Virus record (IMG/VR): IMGVR_UViG_3300030376_005837
Span: 1-27,261 of that record
Length of the DNA: 27,261 bases
Reading direction: 5' to 3' (one strand)
From: a virus
Lineage: Duplodnaviria > Caudoviricetes
Part shown: positions 5,001 to 27,261 of the stretch, piece after piece
Position numbering within the stretch: position 1 is the first letter of the stretch
Layout of the letters: each line of letters opens with the position of its first letter
Notes under the pieces: model-generated
Databases searched by the model: none
Told to the model about the DNA's origin: nothing
Seen by the model: the letters and a program-made list of their open reading frames with translations, nothing else
Translations under genes and position numbers: made by a program

Positions 5001-5641
5001 AAATAGGTGATTTATTATTACTCAAAGGGTATATAAATAAAAAACAACTCAGAGCAGCTTTGAGCAAACAAGCTGATGAGGCTATTAATTATAATAGATC
5101 AGTCCCACTTGGAAAAGTGTTAGTAGAAGAAGGTCATGTAACAGTAGAGGAAGTTGCAGAAGCTTTGAATGACCAACAAATAAATGTAAATATTGAAGAG
5201 GAACAACCAATGGCTCACAAAATAGGCGAGAATACAGCATTTCAGATGGATTTAAAATTCCTTGTTACTATTATGTTTGTAGTAGTTTCAGGAGTTGGTG
5301 TTTATTTTACACTAACAGGTGCAGTAGAAGATAATACTAAAGAAATAAATAATATTAAGTCTATGGGTGACTTAAAGATTATATCTTACAAGTTAGACGA
5401 ATATGATGAAACATTTAAAGATTTAAAAGCATTATCTACTCAACTTACACCTTTAGCTAGTGATTTAACATACATTAAAACAGAATTAGATAAATTAAAA
5501 AACAAGAAAATTAGCATACCTGAAGTTGATTTATCAGGCATTGACGATTGCAAAGATAAGTTAGATGCATTGTCAGCTAAGATAACTACATTTGAGGAAA
5601 GGTTAACTAAGGTAGAAAAAAGCTCAAAAGGAAGATTTTAA
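4997..5641 (+). CDS. Membrane protein: tandem MshEN-like motif + one TM helix + coiled coil
   Basis: KIGDLLLLKGYINKKQLRAALSKQ and PLGKVLVEEGHVTVEEVAEALNDQ; TM FLVTIMFVVVSGVGVYFTL; heptad-rich C-terminus. Confidence 0.75.
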   Translation: MKIGDLLLLKGYINKKQLRAALSKQADEAINYNRSVPLGKVLVEEGHVTVEEVAEALNDQQINVNIEEEQPMAHKIGENTAFQMDLKFLVTIMFVVVSGVGVYFTLTGAVEDNTKEINNIKSMGDLKIISYKLDEYDETFKDLKALSTQLTPLASDLTYIKTELDKLKNKKISIPEVDLSGIDDCKDKLDALSAKITTFEERLTKVEKSSKGRF

Positions 5642-13892: not shown

Positions 13893-15996
13893 GTTTAAAC
13901 CTAAAGGCGATAAAGCCCTAGTTAATGCTATAAAACAATTAGATATAGCAACCAAACAGTTGCAAAATTCTACAGCTAATTTCAGAAATAAGACTGATCA
14001 ACTTGAACAATCTCAAAAAAAATTACATAAAGCACAAAAAAAAGTAAACAAACAAGGTCTTTTAGGAGTAAAGAACAATAGACTTTTGAGTGGTTCTTTA
14101 GCAACACTTCGTTCTAGGTTGCTTATAGTTTCTTTTGGTCTAGGTTTAGTTTCAGTAGGATTTAAAAAGCTATTTGATGCTTCTATAAAACAAGAAAAAG
14201 CTGAGAAAAAACTTTCAACAGCATTAGGTAAAACAAGCACACAGTTATTAAATTATGCTTCTGCTCTTCAAAAAACTACTACTTTTGGAGATGAAGCTAT
14301 TATAGAAGTTCAAGCTCTTATAGGTGCTTTTACTCAAGATGAAGAGCAAATAAAAACATTAACTGCTGCTACTTTAGATTTAGCAGAAGCTAAAGGAATG
14401 GATTTATCTTCAGCAGCAGATTTAGTAGGAAAATCATTTGGTTCTTCTACAAATTCTCTTTCAAGATATGGAGTAAAGGTCAATGGTGTTGTAGGCTCTT
14501 CTCAAAGACTTGAATCTTTAACTACAAATATTGCTGAGTTATTTGGAGGTCAAGCAGCAGCAGCAGCAGACACTCTAGGTGGTTCAGTACAGCAAATGAC
14601 AAATGCTATGGGAGATGCAAATGAAGCTGTTGGTAAGGCATTTGCTCCTGTAATAAAAAAACTTTCAGGGTTTTTAACAGAAGCAGCAGGTTCAGCTAGA
14701 GAGTTTTTCTTAGAATTTGCTGAAACTGATTTTGAAAAAACTGTTAGACAAATAGAAGAAGCAGGAGGAAATGCAGATGACTTAAAGTTATCTTATGCAG
14801 AAATGGCAAAAATAGACATGGAAGATCAATTTAAATCAATGCCTGATGATTTAAATTCTTCTAAAGAAGTTTTACAAAAAATGGGTGATATTGACAAAGA
14901 TAGAGTAAAAATATTAAGAAATAGAGCTGCTATTGAACAAGATATGGCTAAAGAAGGCATTTCAAGAGCACAAGTCGAAACTTTCTCTTCAGATGTTATG
15001 GAAAAAAATATTACTAATCTTAAAACATATAGAGATGAATTAGAAAGAAGGCATGCTCAGGAAACTATGTTTGCTAGTGAATTTGCACAGCAAACAGAAT
15101 CTGAAAATGTAAAAGATGTAAAAGCTAGAATTGCACAGATGGAACATTTTCAAAAAGTAGCTAAAGAATTTAAGAAAAGGTTAGATGACGAGGATGCATC
15201 TTTGGCTAATAAAGATAAAGACAAAGAAAAAAATAAAGAAATGTTGAAGTTTTTAGTGGAGTATGAAAAACAATTAGCTTTAATAGTTAGTCTTACAGAG
15301 GGTGATGATGATGAAGAAGGTGGATTTTTCTCAAGAATATTTGGCAAATTTTCAAAACAAGAGGAAATGGAGAATTTATTAACTAATGTTGATAAAGTAG
15401 TTAATGCTATAGCCAATGTAGGCAATGCTTATGATAAAGTTAAAATGCAACAAATCAATCAAGCTAAACAAGCAGAGCTTGATACTGTTAAAGGCATAAG
15501 AAATGAAAGAATAAGAACTAAAAAAATAGAAGAAATTGAAGCTAAATATGCTGAAAAAACAAGAAAGCATAAAGAAAAAATGAAAGATGTTAAGGTTATG
15601 GAAGCTATATCTAATACTGCATTAGGAGCAACTAAAGCATGGTCTGACCCTGGTGGCTTTTTAGGAATGGCTTTATCTGCATTAATTGTTGCTCAAGGTG
15701 CAATGCAAATCAAAGCAATTAAAGCACAGAAATACCAATATGGTGGTATGGTTGGTGGCAATAGACATTCTCAAGGTGGAACTATGATTGAGGCAGAACA
15801 AGGCGAGTTTGTTATGAGTAGAGATGCTGTTGAAGCTGTAGGTATAGAAAACTTAAATAGAATGAATACTGGTTTAGGTGGTGGAGGTGGAGCTAGTATT
15901 ATTATAAATAATCCTATATTAGGTAAAGATACTATAGAAGATGAGATAGTTCCACAAATAAAAGAAGCACTTAGAAGAGGAGGTTCTATTGCTTAA
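13867..15996 (+). CDS. Tail tape measure protein
   Basis: 709 aa helical, A/K/E/Q-rich; ASALQKTTTFGDE repeat region; C-terminal GGMVGG...EAEQGEFVMSRDAV motif. Confidence 0.92.
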   Translation: MAQKQLIIEFKPKGDKALVNAIKQLDIATKQLQNSTANFRNKTDQLEQSQKKLHKAQKKVNKQGLLGVKNNRLLSGSLATLRSRLLIVSFGLGLVSVGFKKLFDASIKQEKAEKKLSTALGKTSTQLLNYASALQKTTTFGDEAIIEVQALIGAFTQDEEQIKTLTAATLDLAEAKGMDLSSAADLVGKSFGSSTNSLSRYGVKVNGVVGSSQRLESLTTNIAELFGGQAAAAADTLGGSVQQMTNAMGDANEAVGKAFAPVIKKLSGFLTEAAGSAREFFLEFAETDFEKTVRQIEEAGGNADDLKLSYAEMAKIDMEDQFKSMPDDLNSSKEVLQKMGDIDKDRVKILRNRAAIEQDMAKEGISRAQVETFSSDVMEKNITNLKTYRDELERRHAQETMFASEFAQQTESENVKDVKARIAQMEHFQKVAKEFKKRLDDEDASLANKDKDKEKNKEMLKFLVEYEKQLALIVSLTEGDDDEEGGFFSRIFGKFSKQEEMENLLTNVDKVVNAIANVGNAYDKVKMQQINQAKQAELDTVKGIRNERIRTKKIEEIEAKYAEKTRKHKEKMKDVKVMEAISNTALGATKAWSDPGGFLGMALSALIVAQGAMQIKAIKAQKYQYGGMVGGNRHSQGGTMIEAEQGEFVMSRDAVEAVGIENLNRMNTGLGGGGGASIIINNPILGKDTIEDEIVPQIKEALRRGGSIA

Positions 15997-18900
15997 TTTA
16001 GACTTTTTTCCTGAATTTAAATCAGATATACAAGGTAATGCTACTAGCATACATCCTATTGTTAAGATAAACACAAATCCCCCTATTTATTTATCTCAAA
16101 ATGCAGAAGTATTAGAGGATAATGGAGAAATTGTAAACTTTCAAACATTAAATCTTAAAATACCTTCTATTAAAGAATCTATTGATATAGAAAACAGAAA
16201 CTTTAAAATAAATAATGTGACTCTCACATTGTCAAATACAGATTACTTTACAAATGATGGGAATAGAATTTTGTTTAGTGATTTATTTAATGAAATAAAC
16301 TTTTTAAACACCGATGTTCAAATATATTGGAAATCTCAATCTTGTACAACTCTTGTGCAATGTTTACCTATATATAGAGCTATTATTAAGAGAGTTTCTC
16401 ATGATTACGACAATATTAAAATTATATTAGAAGATCTTACAGAATCTGTTATGCACAAAAAAGTACCTATTGGAGTGTTAAACTCTGAAAATGCATACAG
16501 AGAAGAAGACATAAACAAAACAATACCTATGGTATTTGGTGAGATTGAAAAAGCACCTTGTGTTTTATACAAAGACATAAGTTTAGATACTTCTAATCTT
16601 AAAAGAATATATACTTTAGTTGATAGGTTTGAAGTTCCTGTTAAAAAAGGAGTTGCTAACATAGAAGATGTTTACAATCAAAATCAAACTATCGCTACAG
16701 GGTGGACTGAGTTACTATATGTTTATTCAGGCTCTTATTTAAAAGTTATGAAAGACTTAGCTCAAAGTTCTAATTTAGATGAAGGTGTTGATTTTTCTGC
16801 TCCTTCTTCTCCTGGAGTACAAGTAAGCACTTCAGCAGGTTCTGAACAGTCTTTAACATGGCTTAGAGCTACATATGATGGTTTAGTACCTACAAACACA
16901 ATATCTATGGGGATAATGCAAGTTGTTTATAATAATAAACCAACATCTTTAAGTTTAGGAAATGTTGGAGCATCAGGGATACATTTTTCAGGAGCAAATG
17001 AGTCTAATTATGCTAATACAGGTATAAACTGGCAATATGAAGATGAAGGTTTTTCTATAACAAACCCTGAATATGGAATAGATGGTAATTCTAGCACATA
17101 TGCTAATTTTCCACCATACGACATTTCTAATTTAACCGAACTTGCAACTACTGATGATGGTTTTTTTATTATGAATCATTTTTACAATGGCACTTACACT
17201 AGCAACACCTTCAACAATTCTGAAACTTTTTCACTCAATGCAATGGAAGGCGATTGGAATGAAACAAGTCCTGAAATATCTGATAATGAAAAATATTGGC
17301 ATTGGCACAGAAATGCAAATAGATTACTAGGCCTTGATTTAGCTAATAAGGTTGAATTTATATGTATGCCTGATGCTAAAAAACTATATGATTTATTTAG
17401 AATATGGTATGAAAACGAAACTGATAACTCAAGACCATTAAAACCTTGGAGTAGTTGGTCAAAAATAACAGATTATGAAGTTAATACTTCAAATAGTAGT
17501 TCATTTCATAAAAAGGGCAATATATTAAATCATTTTTGGGGAACACCTACAGATTTTTACCAAAGACCTTATTTTCAAGGAAGCACTTTTTTAGTTAATA
17601 ATGATAGATTGCAAATGACAGATTTTGAAGACGACCAATATGAATCAGATAATTATAACCAAGCCCATATACCAAATTATTTATATGGATTTTCAAGAGA
17701 TTTTTCAGTTAATGAAAATCTCCATGCATGGCTAACTTTTTCTAAAGATTTTAATGGTGACACTATCAATGGTTATGATTTAAATGGGCTTCCTGATGCT
17801 AATCCTATTAATATAGATTTTTGGGAGTTAATGGAATATCATGGTTTTACATATGATGATTTTCCAAGGTATAGAATTACAGGATTAATTAACAGGCATG
17901 AATTTTTTAATAGCACTCCATACGATATATCTCATTTTAAAGATGATTTGCAAGTAGAATGGAATGGAATTGATTCTAATTTTTGGCAAAACACAGGTGA
18001 AGTGTCAGGAATGAATCAACCTTGGGATGCTTACAATGGTGGTGGTAGTATGGGGTTTGTAGCAGGAGGTTATTATTCTTGGTATCTTACAGGAAATAAT
18101 GATGGAGGGGTAAAAAGAGAAGCACAAGGATGGCATAATTATTTTTGTGATAGTGGATGGCATATGCACTTCACAGATAGTTACCAATTTGAAGATTCAG
18201 GTGTTACAGCTCCTAAAGGTTTAATGATGCCAGGAGCAATGGGTATGCCAATTTTAAAAGAGATTAACAGTTATAATGGTCTAAGACCTTACATGACACA
18301 AGAAGGCTATAGTAATGGAGCAGGAATGAGAGTTGTTTCAAAAAATAAAACTCCAGGTACAGTTATGAGTGAGGCAGGAAGTAATTATTTTAATATGAAT
18401 ATAGCTGCAAATACATTAACTACATTTGGTCTTTTAACTACCTTAAGTTCTGAAGTAGATGATGCTATAGAAGGTTCAGGATTTAGTTATTTAGATGCAG
18501 AAATTTATTTTGAAAAAGATAACAACATACCTATTGCAGACAATCTTGGAAACAACTCTGTTAAATTAATTCATTTTGGAGTAGACCTTCCTGAAGCAGG
18601 TTCAGATGGAAGTACAGAGATTATTGATTTAGGAAATTTAAGTACAGCATCTTTAAGCACTATAGATGGCATTGATGGATTATACCCTATTTATAATACT
18701 AACGAACCATCAGGCACTCAGAATTGGGATGATCAATTAAATATTGATTTAGAGTGGGATATTCCTAGTAGATTTAATGCTACAATGATTGGTTTTATTT
18801 TTAATTATACAGATAGAGAAGATAGTGTAAACTTTAGAATAGAAGCTAGTAGAATGAGTATGAAACATGTTTTTGAAATAGATAATATATTTGATAAAAA

Positions 18901-20608
18901 CTTTTACTTAGAAACAAAAGGCAGAATGGCTGATAATATATTAGAGGGGACTCCTCCAACTTCAGTCATTAGACATATTATAGAGGAAGAATTAGGATTA
19001 CAAATATTTTTAGATACTCAAAGATTTAATAATATTGACAGTTTTTTAAGTGGTGGCAATTGGAGTATGGCTTTTTCACAAACAGAACAAATGGAAGCTA
19101 AAAAACTTGTACAAGAAATAGCAAAAAACTCTCCTATAGTACCATTGTTTAGATCTAACTCAACATTAAGCATGGCTATTATTAAAAATGACTACACAGG
19201 AGAAGATGTTAGTGCTACAATACTATCTTCAGATATTATAAAATCATCTTTTGACAGAACAAAGATTGAAAATGTTAAAACTATGGTTTCAGTAAAACAT
19301 ACAAGAGATTATGAAACTGATTCGTATAAAAAAACATCTTATGTCAGTGCTTATGATTTTTATGGAAATGGTGATAAAGGTTATCCTAATGGATATAAAA
19401 AAGAATATTATGGATTAGACAAAAATAATGCAGGAGATTCTGTTTTAGAATTTGAAAGCAAATACACAAGATACCCTGTTGGGTATACAGGAGAGTATTT
19501 CGGTACATCAACACCTGAAAAATTAAGAGATTTTACTTTAGCATATAACTGTAATCAACATAATATTATTAAATTTAGAGTTCCTATTAAATATGCTAAT
19601 CTTGAAGTCACAGATATAATTAGATTTGACTCCTTAATAGAAAATATGAAATTATATGGAGAAGATTATACACAGTCTTTTACTAGGAATGGTCAAGAAA
19701 TTTATCCTTATTTTATGATAACAAATATAACTAAAGATATAAAATCTGTAAACATAGAGTGTATACAGATGCACAATTTAAATAGAAATGATAATGTTTT
19801 ATCAGGAGCAAGTGGCGATTTTAATTTAACAGGTGTTACAGACCAGCAAGATTATGAAGATTTAAATCAACATTTACTTTATCCTAATCAATATATATCT
19901 GAAGGGCAATTATATAACTGTGATATGAATGGAGATAAAGTTATAGATAGCAACGATTTAGCTATTTTAAATGAAGTTTTAAATCCTGACCTTATTTCTG
20001 AAGAAGAAGAAGAAGATGTTATTGTTGATGCATACAATTATGAAGGGGTAGGTGTTTTAAGATTGCCTACAGGTGAATCTTCGGGAATATTGAATAGGTT
20101 AGGACTTGATTGGAGAGCTATATTAAGAGATGACAATCAATCCTGTGTTTTGGGTGTAACAAAATATTGGTCAAATAATCTTTATGAAGAGATTACTCAA
20201 GCTTTGCCTAATTGGCTTATTTCTTCTGCTCATGGAGAAGGAAATGGTTTTGATAATCTTCAAGAAGGAATTGGTCGTAATATCTTTTTAAATAACCCTG
20301 ATGTATTCAACTATAATGATACTGTTTTATCTGATAACGATAATGTTATGAGCAAACTTACTCCAAACATTCTTAATTATTATACAGGAACAGGAGGTGG
20401 CTTAGAAAGTATATATACAGGTTGGCATATGAAAATAGGAGATGAATGGATTCGTGTAACAGGTTCTACTACAATGACATACTCTAATGATACACTTGGA
20501 ATTATACTTTATGTAGAAAGAGGTGTTCTTGGAACACAAATAGCAATGCATAATTCAGGCGATGAAGTTTTTATATATAGTGGAGAACCTTCTTCAGGAG
20601 AAATGTAA
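15989..20608 (+). CDS. Large tail tip/hub protein with long central insert and dockerin-like domain
   Basis: 1539 aa after the tape measure; TTG start with GGAGG; IPMVFGE hub-like motif; duplicated Ca-binding loop-helix at 19814-19983. Confidence 0.75.
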   Translation: MLNLDFFPEFKSDIQGNATSIHPIVKINTNPPIYLSQNAEVLEDNGEIVNFQTLNLKIPSIKESIDIENRNFKINNVTLTLSNTDYFTNDGNRILFSDLFNEINFLNTDVQIYWKSQSCTTLVQCLPIYRAIIKRVSHDYDNIKIILEDLTESVMHKKVPIGVLNSENAYREEDINKTIPMVFGEIEKAPCVLYKDISLDTSNLKRIYTLVDRFEVPVKKGVANIEDVYNQNQTIATGWTELLYVYSGSYLKVMKDLAQSSNLDEGVDFSAPSSPGVQVSTSAGSEQSLTWLRATYDGLVPTNTISMGIMQVVYNNKPTSLSLGNVGASGIHFSGANESNYANTGINWQYEDEGFSITNPEYGIDGNSSTYANFPPYDISNLTELATTDDGFFIMNHFYNGTYTSNTFNNSETFSLNAMEGDWNETSPEISDNEKYWHWHRNANRLLGLDLANKVEFICMPDAKKLYDLFRIWYENETDNSRPLKPWSSWSKITDYEVNTSNSSSFHKKGNILNHFWGTPTDFYQRPYFQGSTFLVNNDRLQMTDFEDDQYESDNYNQAHIPNYLYGFSRDFSVNENLHAWLTFSKDFNGDTINGYDLNGLPDANPINIDFWELMEYHGFTYDDFPRYRITGLINRHEFFNSTPYDISHFKDDLQVEWNGIDSNFWQNTGEVSGMNQPWDAYNGGGSMGFVAGGYYSWYLTGNNDGGVKREAQGWHNYFCDSGWHMHFTDSYQFEDSGVTAPKGLMMPGAMGMPILKEINSYNGLRPYMTQEGYSNGAGMRVVSKNKTPGTVMSEAGSNYFNMNIAANTLTTFGLLTTLSSEVDDAIEGSGFSYLDAEIYFEKDNNIPIADNLGNNSVKLIHFGVDLPEAGSDGSTEIIDLGNLSTASLSTIDGIDGLYPIYNTNEPSGTQNWDDQLNIDLEWDIPSRFNATMIGFIFNYTDREDSVNFRIEASRMSMKHVFEIDNIFDKNFYLETKGRMADNILEGTPPTSVIRHIIEEELGLQIFLDTQRFNNIDSFLSGGNWSMAFSQTEQMEAKKLVQEIAKNSPIVPLFRSNSTLSMAIIKNDYTGEDVSATILSSDIIKSSFDRTKIENVKTMVSVKHTRDYETDSYKKTSYVSAYDFYGNGDKGYPNGYKKEYYGLDKNNAGDSVLEFESKYTRYPVGYTGEYFGTSTPEKLRDFTLAYNCNQHNIIKFRVPIKYANLEVTDIIRFDSLIENMKLYGEDYTQSFTRNGQEIYPYFMITNITKDIKSVNIECIQMHNLNRNDNVLSGASGDFNLTGVTDQQDYEDLNQHLLYPNQYISEGQLYNCDMNGDKVIDSNDLAILNEVLNPDLISEEEEEDVIVDAYNYEGVGVLRLPTGESSGILNRLGLDWRAILRDDNQSCVLGVTKYWSNNLYEEITQALPNWLISSAHGEGNGFDNLQEGIGRNIFLNNPDVFNYNDTVLSDNDNVMSKLTPNILNYYTGTGGGLESIYTGWHMKIGDEWIRVTGSTTMTYSNDTLGIILYVERGVLGTQIAMHNSGDEVFIYSGEPSSGEM

Positions 20609-24375: not shown

Positions 24376-24557
24376 TTTTTATACCTTACATTGTTTCTAT
24401 AATTAGAGCCAAACATTTCTCTTACTGCACATTTTCTACAGATTAATCCTAAAAAATTATATGTTACATCAGAATGCCATTCATAGAATGGTGCATTCAT
24501 TTTATAGTCATCGCAGCAACAACATCTCTGACTTAAATTCTGCATATATTTTATCAT
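24345..24557 (-). CDS. Small Cys-rich (Zn-binding) protein; start uncertain
   Basis: RCCCCD and ICRKC; tiles between its neighbours. Confidence 0.6.
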   Translation of the reverse strand: MIKYMQNLSQRCCCCDDYKMNAPFYEWHSDVTYNFLGLICRKCAVREMFGSNYRNNVRYKKWIIKENQRT

Positions 24558-24735
24558 CTATATTTACCTCCGATAAATCTCCACCTAACTCCATATATCT
24601 TTCTAAGCAGTTAAAAATCATTGATTTGGTTACCATAGTTCCTGTTATTTTTGATTCATTACCGATCCCAGTTTCACAATAGTTCCTTAATCTGAATCTA
24701 TATGTGTCTAAGATCACCTGATGAGTTTTGTCCAT
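24508..24735 (-). CDS. Hypothetical protein
   Basis: 75 aa, AAAGG upstream, operon orientation. Confidence 0.7.
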   Translation of the reverse strand: MDKTHQVILDTYRFRLRNYCETGIGNESKITGTMVTKSMIFNCLERYMELGGDLSEVNIDDKIYAEFKSEMLLLR

Positions 24736-24765
24736 TATTGGCCTTTCTTTTTTTTGAGATACCTT

Positions 24766-24832
24766 GTGGTGGCGAGGGAGTCGAACCCTCTCAAGCTAAA
24801 GGAATAATAAAAAGCCTGAACCACTACCACCA
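24766..24832 (-). ncRNA. tRNA-like small RNA with an anti-Shine-Dalgarno loop
   Basis: UGGUGGU/GCCACCA acceptor-like stem; AGUGGU D-loop-like linker; UCAGGCU/AGCUUGA stem with 15-nt loop UUUUAUUAUUCCUUU; T arm GAGGG-UUCGACU-CCCUC; intergenic. Confidence 0.8.
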
Positions 24833-24878
24833 TATTACCACAAAACATTCTCACTCCGACATGAAAAAACAAATATTA

Positions 24879-25115
24879 TTAATCTGTTTCATTTCCTTTT
24901 ATTCTACTTATGTCTTGTGGTAATTCTTTATCGCAATCTGCAATTGCTTCTTTAATTCTTTTTACAACATTAGCTGATGAGTCATTCATGGAAATTATAA
25001 CTTCAAGCCCATCTAAAGCAATAGAAAGTTTTTGATTTAATATGCTGTTTTCTTTAGCAAGAAACTCTGATTGCTTTACTAATGCCATAAAAACACTTGT
25101 TGATTTTTCTTTCAT
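24879..25115 (-). CDS. Hypothetical coiled-coil protein
   Basis: TAATG overlap with the upstream gene. Confidence 0.7.
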   Translation of the reverse strand: MKEKSTSVFMALVKQSEFLAKENSILNQKLSIALDGLEVIISMNDSSANVVKRIKEAIADCDKELPQDISRIKGNETD

Positions 25116-25588
25116 TATTTACCCATCTTTTCTTTAGTTTGTTGTAAAAGTTCTTTAACCCAATCTTGTGGAGCAGAATCAACCTCTGCTTCCTTTAAAT
25201 ACTCATTCCTTTTCTTTATCTGACGATCTATTTGCTTATCAACTTGCACAGGAATGCTTCCTCCATTGTCCATTGCTCTACTGAGCCAATTATTTGTAAA
25301 CCTTTTAAAATCTTTTTTTGCTTTATTTGTGTTGCATAGCAACCAGGATTCACACCTCTTTGTTTGTTCGAGTATATCCACATTAGGATATGCTTTTTTC
25401 CAAGTTTCAAGTAACTCCTGGGGGATATTAGAGTAGAACTTCTTGATTCGAGTGTTATAGGGATCAACTGTTTTACCACCATAGCTGATTTTTGAGTAGT
25501 CCTCCAGAAGATACTTGAAAACTTTTCTTCCATCAACCCATTTTTCTTTGCCATCAATACGAACTAATATTTCAAAGAACATGGGCAT
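25115..25588 (-). CDS. Putative replication protein (initiator C-terminal-domain-like)
   Basis: WKKAYPNVDI...WLLCN...KKDFKRFTNNWLSRA resembles the C-terminus of phage replisome organisers; next to SSB and Sak. Confidence 0.55.
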   Translation of the reverse strand: MPMFFEILVRIDGKEKWVDGRKVFKYLLEDYSKISYGGKTVDPYNTRIKKFYSNIPQELLETWKKAYPNVDILEQTKRCESWLLCNTNKAKKDFKRFTNNWLSRAMDNGGSIPVQVDKQIDRQIKKRNEYLKEAEVDSAPQDWVKELLQQTKEKMGK

Positions 25589-25863: not shown

Positions 25864-25929
25864 TTAATTAAAAATTGACATTATTAAAATTAAAAACACT
25901 AATAGAAACCCTTGCATAAATAAATCCAT
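25864..25929 (-). CDS. 21-aa hydrophobic peptide MDLFMQGFLLVFLILIMSIFN (not in ORF track)
   Basis: AAGGAGG RBS, TAATG overlap with the Sak stop. Confidence 0.55.
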   Translation of the reverse strand: MDLFMQGFLLVFLILIMSIFN

Positions 25930-26423
25930 TATTTATCCTCCTTAGGTTTCCATTGTTGTACAACTACAAAACTATTTGTATTAGGATTTAAAAACTTGTT
26001 GCCCTTCATCTCTGCAACATATTTAAAACCTTTTGGATCAGGAAGATTATATAAATCTCTAGCTAACCCAAAATGAACAGCACACCTCTTAAAAGCATCT
26101 GATACCTCACCTTTTTGCTGTTCTACATTAGATTCTGTACCTACATCTGTTTTACTTACAGAATCAACAACTCCATCTTCTCTAATGAATTTGATTGTTA
26201 TAGTGCAATAAAGTATTCCTTTTTCATCTCTATGGAATTTATTACTCCAATTACATATACCAACTATTTCATCTAACTTATCTTGAATATACCTAGCATC
26301 AACATAAGCTAACATTCTTGCATACTTCTTTTCTGCCCAATTAAATGTTGAACCAGGACGATACTTTATTTCGTCTTTAGGAGTTGCAACATTCAACTTT
26401 GATAACTCATTTTCTTTTATCAT
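25929..26423 (-). CDS. sak: Sak/Rad52-family single-strand annealing recombinase
   Basis: LAYVDARYIQDKLDEIVG-NW and KTDVG-ES...KGEVSDAFKRCAVHFGLARDLY. Confidence 0.9.
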   Translation of the reverse strand: MIKENELSKLNVATPKDEIKYRPGSTFNWAEKKYARMLAYVDARYIQDKLDEIVGICNWSNKFHRDEKGILYCTITIKFIREDGVVDSVSKTDVGTESNVEQQKGEVSDAFKRCAVHFGLARDLYNLPDPKGFKYVAEMKGNKFLNPNTNSFVVVQQWKPKEDK

Positions 26424-26444
26424 TTGTTATTCCTTTTTTGTTTA
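26420..26444. repeat. 25-nt direct repeat, copy 1 (RBS and start of sak)
   Basis: TCATTTGTTATTCCTTTTTTGTTTA, identical to 27080-27104. Confidence 0.9.
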
Positions 26445-26752
26445 TAATCTGTTGGATTTTGTTCTACTATAATTTCATTTACTCTATCAATCATAATTTG
26501 TCTTGATGGAGTAAATATTTCTTTTAAATAAATCATATAAGCATCTCTCCAGTCATTGCAATCTTTATCATCTCCAAAGTCTACGATAATATTTGTTCCA
26601 TTTTTAAAGTAGAATTGTATACAGGAGTGATATTCGCCAGTACAAATCTTATTGCTAAGATCTCCATTATCTCCACCTATTGAAACAAATCCGATAATTT
26701 CATTCACTCTGAAGGTGTGATACATATCTATTGTTATAAATTCATCTTTCAT
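26420..26752 (-). CDS. Hypothetical protein
   Basis: 110 aa, AGGGA RBS, ATGA overlap with sak. Confidence 0.75.
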   Translation of the reverse strand: MKDEFITIDMYHTFRVNEIIGFVSIGGDNGDLSNKICTGEYHSCIQFYFKNGTNIIVDFGDDKDCNDWRDAYMIYLKEIFTPSRQIMIDRVNEIIVEQNPTDYKQKRNNK

Positions 26753-26762
26753 TTTATTCCCT

Positions 26763-27083
26763 TTATTGTTTTATTATTTTATCTTCTATTGCATTTTCTA
26801 TCATTACACCTTTTACTGCTAAATCAACATCTTCCATATGTTCAGTTGATTTCTTAATGCCTTTACTAAGATGAATCTTAACCCAGTTTGTATTACAGGT
26901 ATCGCACACAGGCATAGATTCTCTATGTGTTTCCCATGCCCAATCAGGAACAGGTGTTTCGTGTGCCCAAATAGTTGTTTTACCTATAACAAAAGACTTG
27001 CGAGTATATTGATCTCCTTTTTCTATTTTGCATTTACAAGAATAACATTCGTACTCTTGCCTTGCTTTTTTAGTCTTGCTCAT
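26763..27083 (-). CDS. Zn-finger protein
   Basis: KARQEYECYSCKCKIEKGDQY and VCDTC. Confidence 0.75.
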   Translation of the reverse strand: MSKTKKARQEYECYSCKCKIEKGDQYTRKSFVIGKTTIWAHETPVPDWAWETHRESMPVCDTCNTNWVKIHLSKGIKKSTEHMEDVDLAVKGVMIENAIEDKIIKQ

Positions 27084-27261
27084 TTGTTATTCCTTTTTTG
27101 TTTAATATATCTACTAATTCATCATGTCGTCTTCTTAGCTCCATGACACTTCCATGCTCGTAATATACTTTACCACTCTTACTAACATAAATCTTTAGAT
27201 CAGAATGCTTTACTTTTTTGAACTTATAAAGCTCTTCTATCTTTGATGCTTCAATCTCAAT
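27070..27261 (-). CDS. 3' part of a hypothetical protein entering from the right edge
   Basis: Open frame IEIEASKIEELYKF...NKKGITNEQD*. Confidence 0.65.
   Translation of the reverse strand: MEIEASKIEELYKFKKVKHSDLKIYVSKSGKVYYEHGSVMELRRRHDELVDILNKKGITNEQD
27080..27104. repeat. 25-nt direct repeat, copy 2 (RBS and start of the Zn-finger gene)
   Basis: Identical to 26420-26444. Confidence 0.9.

Follow-up and report, generated by a model that had tools for sequence, protein, structure and literature searches.

What is a tRNA-like RNA with an enlarged loop doing at the distal end of a phage's early genes? The stretch of DNA analysed here (27,261 nt; hereafter the window) represents most of one tailed-phage genome, in which genes for terminase, major head protein, endolysin and tape measure protein were recognised, together with a leftward arm encoding Sak, SSB, a DNA methyltransferase and a RusA-like resolvase. 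Within this arm, 3' of small early genes and between the ORFs at 24879-25115 and 24508-24735, an initial annotation had placed a minus-strand small RNA that mimics a tRNA and carries a loop complementary to the ribosome-binding sites (RBSs) of the phage's own early genes. The gene that it called sak (25929-26423) was confirmed as Rad52 family, and the one that it labelled as Zn-finger (26763-27083) does encode two CxxC motifs, with no family match behind the label. No cultured relatives of the phage were found (a 157-aa neighbouring protein, used below as an anchor, gave three weak partial matches and the capsid 13 distant ones) and no relative of the anchor protein was found in species genomes; as clues to the host, the capsid matches reached only 25-45% and protein clusters gave no organism names. 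The 1539-aa protein encoded after the tape measure gene (15989-20608, plus strand) carries a dockerin type I domain, a possible host-surface clue.

The minus strand folds as first described (MFE -24.6 kcal/mol, z -2.05, over 81 nt), and with the upstream leader included the z-score was -3.95, with 1/200 shuffles as good. From the fold and a family model (R1, which finds one copy in the window at 71.7 bits, the window having been part of the model), we predict a 68-nt small RNA (24764-24831, minus strand) that runs from G1 to an ACAA tail and combines a TLD-like scaffold with an anti-RBS loop. Fold and pair conservation define an acceptor-like 5' strand, GGTGGT (24826-24831), with a predicted RNase P cut 5' of G24831 and a U at -1, and pair conservation defines the 3' strand, GCCACC, followed by the discriminator A24767 and by CAA replacing CCA (24764-24773). 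Between the two strands lie a stemless D-loop-like AGTGGT with its GG (24820-24825; in relatives with a 7-bp acceptor GG(T/C)TT(C)GA, as in tmRNA), a 7-bp hairpin termed P2 at the position of tmRNA helix 2 (24791-24819), and a T arm, GAGGG-TTCGACT-CCCTC (24774-24790), which matches the T-arm piece of an Rfam model and shows compensatory pair types in 22 variants. P2 closes the 15-nt anti-RBS loop (24798-24812), for which the predicted probability of being unpaired is at least 0.96 at all 15 positions.

The acceptor-like stem is present, with 6 bp more likely than the 7 bp originally drawn: because the top U-A pair is mismatched in 6/22 variants, the RNA more likely starts at G24831, and the stack of acceptor and T arm, which does exist, is more likely 11 bp than 12 bp long, with an unpaired ACAA tail. 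Across the variants the conserved stem begins at GG and an unpaired ACAA-type tail follows it. The two top G-C pairs occur in 21/21 parsed variants and several pair types are found lower in the stem (at pair 3, U-A in 7, A-U in 4, G-U in 8 and G-C in 2); these counts come from a parser that follows paired positions only and that mis-parsed the acceptor row of the window, hence n = 21.

As the annotation had expected, ARAGORN calls no tRNA in the window; the D stem and 7-nt anticodon loop of a canonical tRNA are absent, and the loops of homologues measure ~8-16 nt, with no normal 7-nt anticodon loop of the kind that would mark a decayed tRNA. Over the loci, ARAGORN called 1/30 (L015, an irregular tRNA-Gly on the homologue), and an alanine-type tRNA gene lies in the early arm of L178 (L178:2033-2107). 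The proposed comparison with the Rfam C4 and YrlA models likewise gave no match (for C4, RF01695, with E limits of 10 for the window region and 1 for the 22 locus scans), Y RNA models did not match in the window or the related loci scanned, and the only similarity was to the T-arm piece of tmRNA (14.1 bits). No linked Ro60 was named among the window proteins scanned. A CTCATCAG motif had pointed to a hammerhead on the opposite strand, which Rfam did not find. One RNA run was found (0.05 share); its contigs do not span the element, and it weighs neither way.

The sequence AAAGGAATAA occurs in exactly three copies in the 27 kb, namely as the loop's complement and before the starts at 27083 and 26423. 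The reported complementarity of 13 out of 14 nt between the loop and the sequence preceding these ATGs is a real match, with the correction that the 14-nt target extends as far as the A of the AUG. Three target sites can be placed on the minus strand, comprising the RBS and start of the CxxC protein gene 26763-27083 (site 27080-27103; 10-nt Watson-Crick run, -9.7 kcal/mol), of the ORF 26420-26752 (site 26749-26775; 7-nt Watson-Crick run, -10.0 kcal/mol with G-U pairs) and of sak (site 26420-26443; exact AAAGGAATAA match). The second of these had been considered weaker, which did not hold up: with G-U pairs counted it matches the other two in strength (-10.0 vs -9.7 kcal/mol). Sites 27080-27103 and 26420-26443 form a 24-nt exact direct repeat, and a 26-nt start-site repeat is found in four copies in the related genome G002; such start-site repeats may also promote cassette shuffling by Sak.

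Among the starts of the window, runs of at least 9 nt occur at 2/5 upstream, 0/8 downstream and 0/19 late starts. The duplexes are modest (-9.7 to -10.0 kcal/mol) with a small margin over non-target starts (25929, -8.6 kcal/mol). Because shuffled loops gave two such 10-nt matches among 7 upstream starts in 63/5000 trials, the window match taken alone is only moderate evidence, and the case is carried by the homologues.

These were fetched via the neighbouring unknown protein of 157 aa (25115-25588, minus strand), which served as a synteny anchor and yielded 119 loci; 15 were too short downstream and the rest amounted to 77 distinct regions, including 58 close loci (at least 47% identity over >100 residues). 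A crude test scored both the T arm and an open pyrimidine loop in 23 of the 58, the loop only in 22, the T arm only in 8 and neither in 5, so that one or both stand at the same place in 53/58 distinct close loci; a CCTTTC hairpin was present by eye in the five scoring neither, and 6/19 distant or partial regions scored a loop. An exact-pattern search for window-type RNA in viral contigs gave no match. Our literature search, which covered titles and the starts of abstracts, for the most part in journals free of subscription, returned no published description of this RNA. The element is a real, conserved and apparently undescribed RNA family.

Co-variation of loop and RBS had been set beforehand as a test of the proposed function. 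We used 37 loci with enough upstream DNA, in which 617 starts were called by a heuristic, and 16 loop groups; each loop was scored against the starts of every group, and row and column means were removed. Loops fitted their own starts better than foreign ones (p = 2e-4 for duplex energy and p < 1e-5 for the longest paired run, permutation p values that overstate independence, the loop groups being related). The centred excess was 1.12 for the true antisense and 0.05, -0.05 and at most 0.15 for the sense, reversed and shuffled loops, respectively, while other parts of the RNA gave 0.06 and -0.24. A small composition effect, about a quarter of the signal, was seen with the complement-only control (0.30; p = 0.006) and with the leader (0.29; p = 0.005). 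Runs of at least 9 nt were found at 97/617 upstream starts, 5/275 downstream starts, 1/94 opposite-strand starts and 3/1821 coding windows, and most of them begin at -12 to -17 and end at -3 to -8 from the start. In the complete relative G001 the loop matches 9/25 upstream starts (one over 15 nt), 1/5 downstream starts and 0/38 other starts, all of them outside the early arm; in G002, 6/22 upstream starts are matched and none elsewhere. The pairs themselves differ among phages: L219 has a loop with CCCTTTCT opposite AGAAAGGG starts, L183 a loop CGTCCTTTCT opposite AGAAAGGACG starts, and L185 a loop TTGTTTTTC opposite GAAAAACAA, without a standard SD core. This co-variation supports an antisense action on the phage's own early genes.

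The same data bear on another alternative, that the element is what decay has left of a tRNA or tmRNA, for instance at an attachment site, and that its loop matches by chance. The 63/5000 loop shuffles that reproduce the window match fit such a remnant, and it is hard to reconcile with compensatory changes in all stems, fixed synteny, the swap of loops between groups, the enrichment by position and the lack of integrase in near-complete relatives; the co-variation tests largely refute it, and we consider it extremely unlikely.

Some groups fit their own starts poorly, namely L166/L171 and L226 by both measures and L184 by energy only, and G005 has no match of at least 9 nt and G003 8-nt matches only. 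The distant variant L235, outside the swap test, has two own starts matched over 9 nt, and L237, with an L235-type loop, has no 9-nt match to its own starts. In these two distant relatives the RNA forms a three-way junction (L235:7265-7335 and L237:7835-7905) with one anti-AUG-like loop and one anti-SD-like loop; similar T-armless junctions form in L028, L159, L185 and L199, and a two-loop form of the RNA occurs in the L018/L229 group.

CTCC, corresponding to the anti-SD core CUCC, was found in 0/16 loop groups, and GGAG stands at 271/617 upstream starts and at many late starts. Because no loop carries CUCC, late genes of the AGGAG type would be spared. When the AAAGG core was fixed, co-variation was weak (p = 0.02 for the next 5 nt, p = 0.13 for positions 3-5 and p = 0.046 for the 5' flank), so that loops and RBSs may both have been drawn towards the host 16S 3' tail. 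In a reading in cis, the fold marks the early transcript for cutting or stabilises it, the loop has no more than a likeness to that tail, and the early RBSs have separately adapted to it. This reading accommodates the weak spacer-only co-variation, the several loops that contain TCCTTTCT(A), which we take to resemble a 16S tail, and two sorts of element elsewhere: in the early arm of L027, an acceptor/T-arm element reduced to a minimum and lacking the loop (L027:1530-1575), and T arms with acceptor strand and terminal CCACAA, which are common in unrelated phages (L031-L149; ~430 stretches estimated), have highly diverse middles and lack RBS matches. A processing signal, however, needs no anti-RBS loop, yet the loop stays where the T arm is missing; moreover, CTCC is absent from the loops of 16/16 groups, and the loops of L185, L016 and L229 match the spacer and AUG, not the SD core. 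We therefore regard punctuation in cis as unlikely.

For the unrelated T-arm/CCACAA elements (n = 51) no own-RBS signal was detected (upstream, p = 0.23; downstream, p = 0.053), the family model matched 1/81 of such loci, weakly, and of the unrelated loci retrieved by a loop-plus-T-arm pattern 0/15 had two or more matched starts. tRNA-like elements with C/U-rich loops are also present in the unrelated phages L271 (near 5001-5039, minus strand), L269 (near 2685-2722), L251 and L262; the L271 loop contains CCTCCTTTC, a canonical anti-SD, and the nearby own starts are unmatched.

An RNA of this kind could also be aimed outward, imitating the 16S tail so as to silence mRNAs of the host or early genes of superinfecting relatives, the match to own starts then following from kinship. 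Loops do cross-match related phages well (off-diagonal values up to 11-17) and their shared core is SD-like; own starts are nevertheless matched best on average, and the canonical AGGAG sites frequent in hosts are unreadable by the loops. Tyrosine integrase and serine recombinase profiles (PF00589, PF07508) are absent from 5/5 near-complete relatives (98-100% by CheckV), each of which has one HTH_3 gene, so that prophage immunity is not evident. An outward aim, which we judge quite unlikely, is not exclusive with antisense repression of early genes.

The scaffold of the RNA points to tmRNA. In 6/9 related loci scanned, the tmRNA model RF00023 aligns from its first to its last position (39.7-51.2 bits), and 3/9 pass its cut-off of 47 (51.2, 51.2 and 50.4 bits, with the message domain replaced by 4-12 nt); 308-312 model positions of the tmRNA message region are replaced by 4-23 nt. 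The window, with its T-arm piece at 14.1 bits, lies below this cut-off, as does the near-identical L005 (17.9 bits), in which the window type shows the same alignment in weak form. A blastn search with a tmRNA-like variant against cultured phages gave annotated tmRNAs as the best matches, weak ones. Because position, leader and loop core are common to the tmRNA-like forms, the scaffold of the window RNA is likely of tmRNA origin as well. As to the direction of change between tmRNA-like and other forms, a quick tree built from the anchor protein, with its root unsure, did not place the tmRNA-like state as ancestral at the root. On the same tree the T arm is missing with the loop kept in several lineages, by at least three and up to seven changes (three of the seven forced by strong branches). 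Because many relatives without the T arm keep the loop, the tRNA shape is not essential to the system.

This likeness raises another alternative, that the RNA is a TLD-only tmRNA decoy of the type found in mycobacteriophage DS6A, which titrates SmpB and inhibits host trans-translation. In the passages of PMC4131195 and PMC11915505 that concern them, CDS-less tmRNAs of ~65 nt are described from plastids and from DS6A, the DS6A-type molecule inhibits tmRNA, and TLD-only tmRNAs are discussed only as tmRNA inhibitors or rescue aids. With these molecules (DS6A; CDS-less plastid and mitochondrial forms) the element shares the acceptor, stemless D loop, helix 2, T arm, a length of ~65-80 nt and the lack of a message domain; a 7-bp acceptor with G3-U70 and A73 is retained by 8/22 variants, and the RF00023 scores of 39.7-51.2 bits in six loci speak for the same kinship. 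The window copy differs from the DS6A type: it keeps A73 and has a 6-bp acceptor, U3-A70 in place of G3-U70 and no connector, and it has lost the alanine mark. Unlike in TLD-only tmRNA, helix 2 closes an anti-RBS loop that co-varies with phage starts, a match that the decoy leaves unexplained, and the loop occurs without a T arm in 22/58 close loci. In L151, whose anchor protein is 78% identical to that of the window, tandem tRNA-like RNAs (L151:964-1098) comprise an anti-RBS copy and, beside it, a pure TLD-only copy (51.2 bits, 4-nt loop), which suggests that the antisense and TLD roles are separable; in L166/L171, the most tmRNA-like group, the poorly fitting loop matches the RBS core only. 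For the window RNA the decoy appears very improbable; in the 7-bp relatives alone it may be an additional role or an ancestral one.

The cassette extends beyond what had been noted, and a conserved upstream stem, P0, belongs to it. This 15-bp leader stem (24834-24924, minus strand) has its 5' arm (24910-24924) in the final codons of the upstream 78-aa ORF (24879-25115, minus strand) and its 3' arm at 24834-24848, and by fold and homologues it encloses a hairpin (24849-24866, minus strand) with a conserved GUCGGA loop. P0 was scored in 30/37 loci with a search pattern that fixed its central pairs, and shows double-sided changes, for example in L016/L229 and L216, those in L016 and L229 also altering encoded residues. 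When the 5' arm was removed in silico from 19 variants, the acceptor pair probability fell from at least 0.75 to at most 0.5 in 11/19; the real leader was more disruptive than the shuffle mean in 15/17 and within the lowest tenth in only 10. On this prediction only, ribosomes on the upstream ORF could gate excision via P0.

Other features of the cassette are noted here for completeness. The GUCGGA hexaloop (24855-24860, minus strand), whose stem varies in sequence, could be a protein-binding hairpin. A conserved CTCATCA(G)-type motif (24718-24725, minus strand; found in 34/37 loci with a loose pattern) lies in the window inside the ORF 24508-24735 and generally 24-136 nt after the loop, whether intergenic or inside the next gene, and no partner for it was found. 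In the T-armless L184, L186, L180 and L017, a perfect extended -10 (TG-n-TATAAT) overlaps the P0 3' arm and may stand in for processing as the RNA's own promoter; in the window such a promoter in the P0 3' arm would remove the acceptor, and the scan lists none there.

Taken together, the fold, its compensatory conservation, the distal position in the early arm, the tmRNA match and the co-variation form the sequence-level basis of the antisense reading, in which a predicted processed RNA represses a subset of early genes, and which we consider on balance probable. The RNA, encoded on the same strand as its targets, would be co-transcribed with them, and no terminator-like site was found between targets and RNA on the minus strand. 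Host tRNA-processing enzymes would then release it, RNase P cutting 5' at G24831 and the 3' end being trimmed, and the resulting stable RNA would build up with time. Its loop is predicted to pair over the SD, the spacer and in some phages the AUG, excluding the 30S subunit. Selectivity would reside in a two-class RBS code: a target class consisting of (T)A(G)AAAGG(A/G) with a phage-specific spacer, and a spared class with AGGAG at late genes and some early genes (SSB, HTH), which no loop could read. More tentatively, P0 may gate folding, its freed 3' arm being predicted to invade the acceptor stem. The outcome would be a delayed shut-off of early genes.

Pairing at these sites might conversely help translation, with the RNA delivering weak early RBSs to ribosomes or, at the extreme, serving as the acceptor piece of a two-piece tmRNA for which phage mRNA is the message in trans. 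The target RBSs are indeed weak against a generic 16S tail (~-6 vs -8 to -12 kcal/mol) and the loop sits exactly at the position of the tmRNA message domain. The pairing, however, covers the SD and spacer and reaches the start codon in L016, L229 and L185, the alanine mark and T arm are dispensable, and the RNA lies downstream of its targets; we find a helper role highly unlikely. A more far-reaching form of the antisense reading, to which we give somewhat less than an even chance, is that a host rescue RNA has been turned into a re-programmable antisense guide: the loop would replace the tmRNA message domain and read a private RBS code (up to ~10 early genes), loop and code would co-evolve, the scaffold would be exchangeable for plain hairpins, and a translation-sensitive leader would time the release.

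The comparison originally drawn with the C4 and CI antisense RNAs holds for logic and not for descent, there being no C4 match while relatives match tmRNA end to end. The account that assumes least joins the logic of C4 to a body derived from tmRNA. As characterised in the relevant passages of PMC5320573 and PMC4825925, C4 and P4 CI are cut from a longer transcript and pair through an exposed loop with an RBS of the same unit, loop changes setting the specificity; RNase P cleaves C4 at a GGT, and C4 occludes an RBS (same passages of PMC5320573), and where PMC2864571 names the c4 motif it merely lists it. Like C4 (P1/P7, RF01695) and P4 CI as so described, the element is predicted to be a structured small RNA, processed and directed by its loop at RBSs of the same unit, and a GG(W) opens the terminal stem, the GGT at 24831 being a likeness in sequence. 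Unlike C4 and CI, the window type has one loop, not two (a', b') for two-part sites, its scaffold matches tmRNA, it has many candidate targets (3 in the window and, in G001, 9 upstream starts), not a single icd/ant or kil unit, those in the window being sak and small unknown ORFs, and with no integrase, lysogenic immunity is not evident. It also differs from tmRNA in having no message domain with a tag reading frame. In phage T4, according to the part of PMC3014915 that treats them, RegA and RegB shut off a set of early mRNAs post-transcriptionally via a shared translation-initiation feature, and the element is predicted to do likewise; RegA and RegB are proteins (a repressor and a GGAG nuclease), whereas here the predicted agent is an RNA and the GGAG class would be spared. 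The best reading by analogy is that the element works like C4/CI and RegA/RegB while being a member of neither, and is not a tmRNA.

Small lytic phages must turn their early genes down, and to our knowledge the known translational devices for doing so are proteins (T4 RegA and RegB). This family would offer an RNA solution with a readable code, and its natural loop/RBS pairs, which differ in specificity, lend themselves directly to compensatory tests. Phage mini-tmRNAs, overlooked by annotation tools or discarded by them as truncated, would gain a function besides SmpB titration, and the forms at one locus grade from intact tmRNA ends into plain hairpins. Synthetic gene control could also make use of a stable scaffold that excises itself and whose anti-RBS loop can be exchanged. 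If the re-programmable guide is real, it would constitute an RNA-only early-to-late switch in a non-integrating phage.
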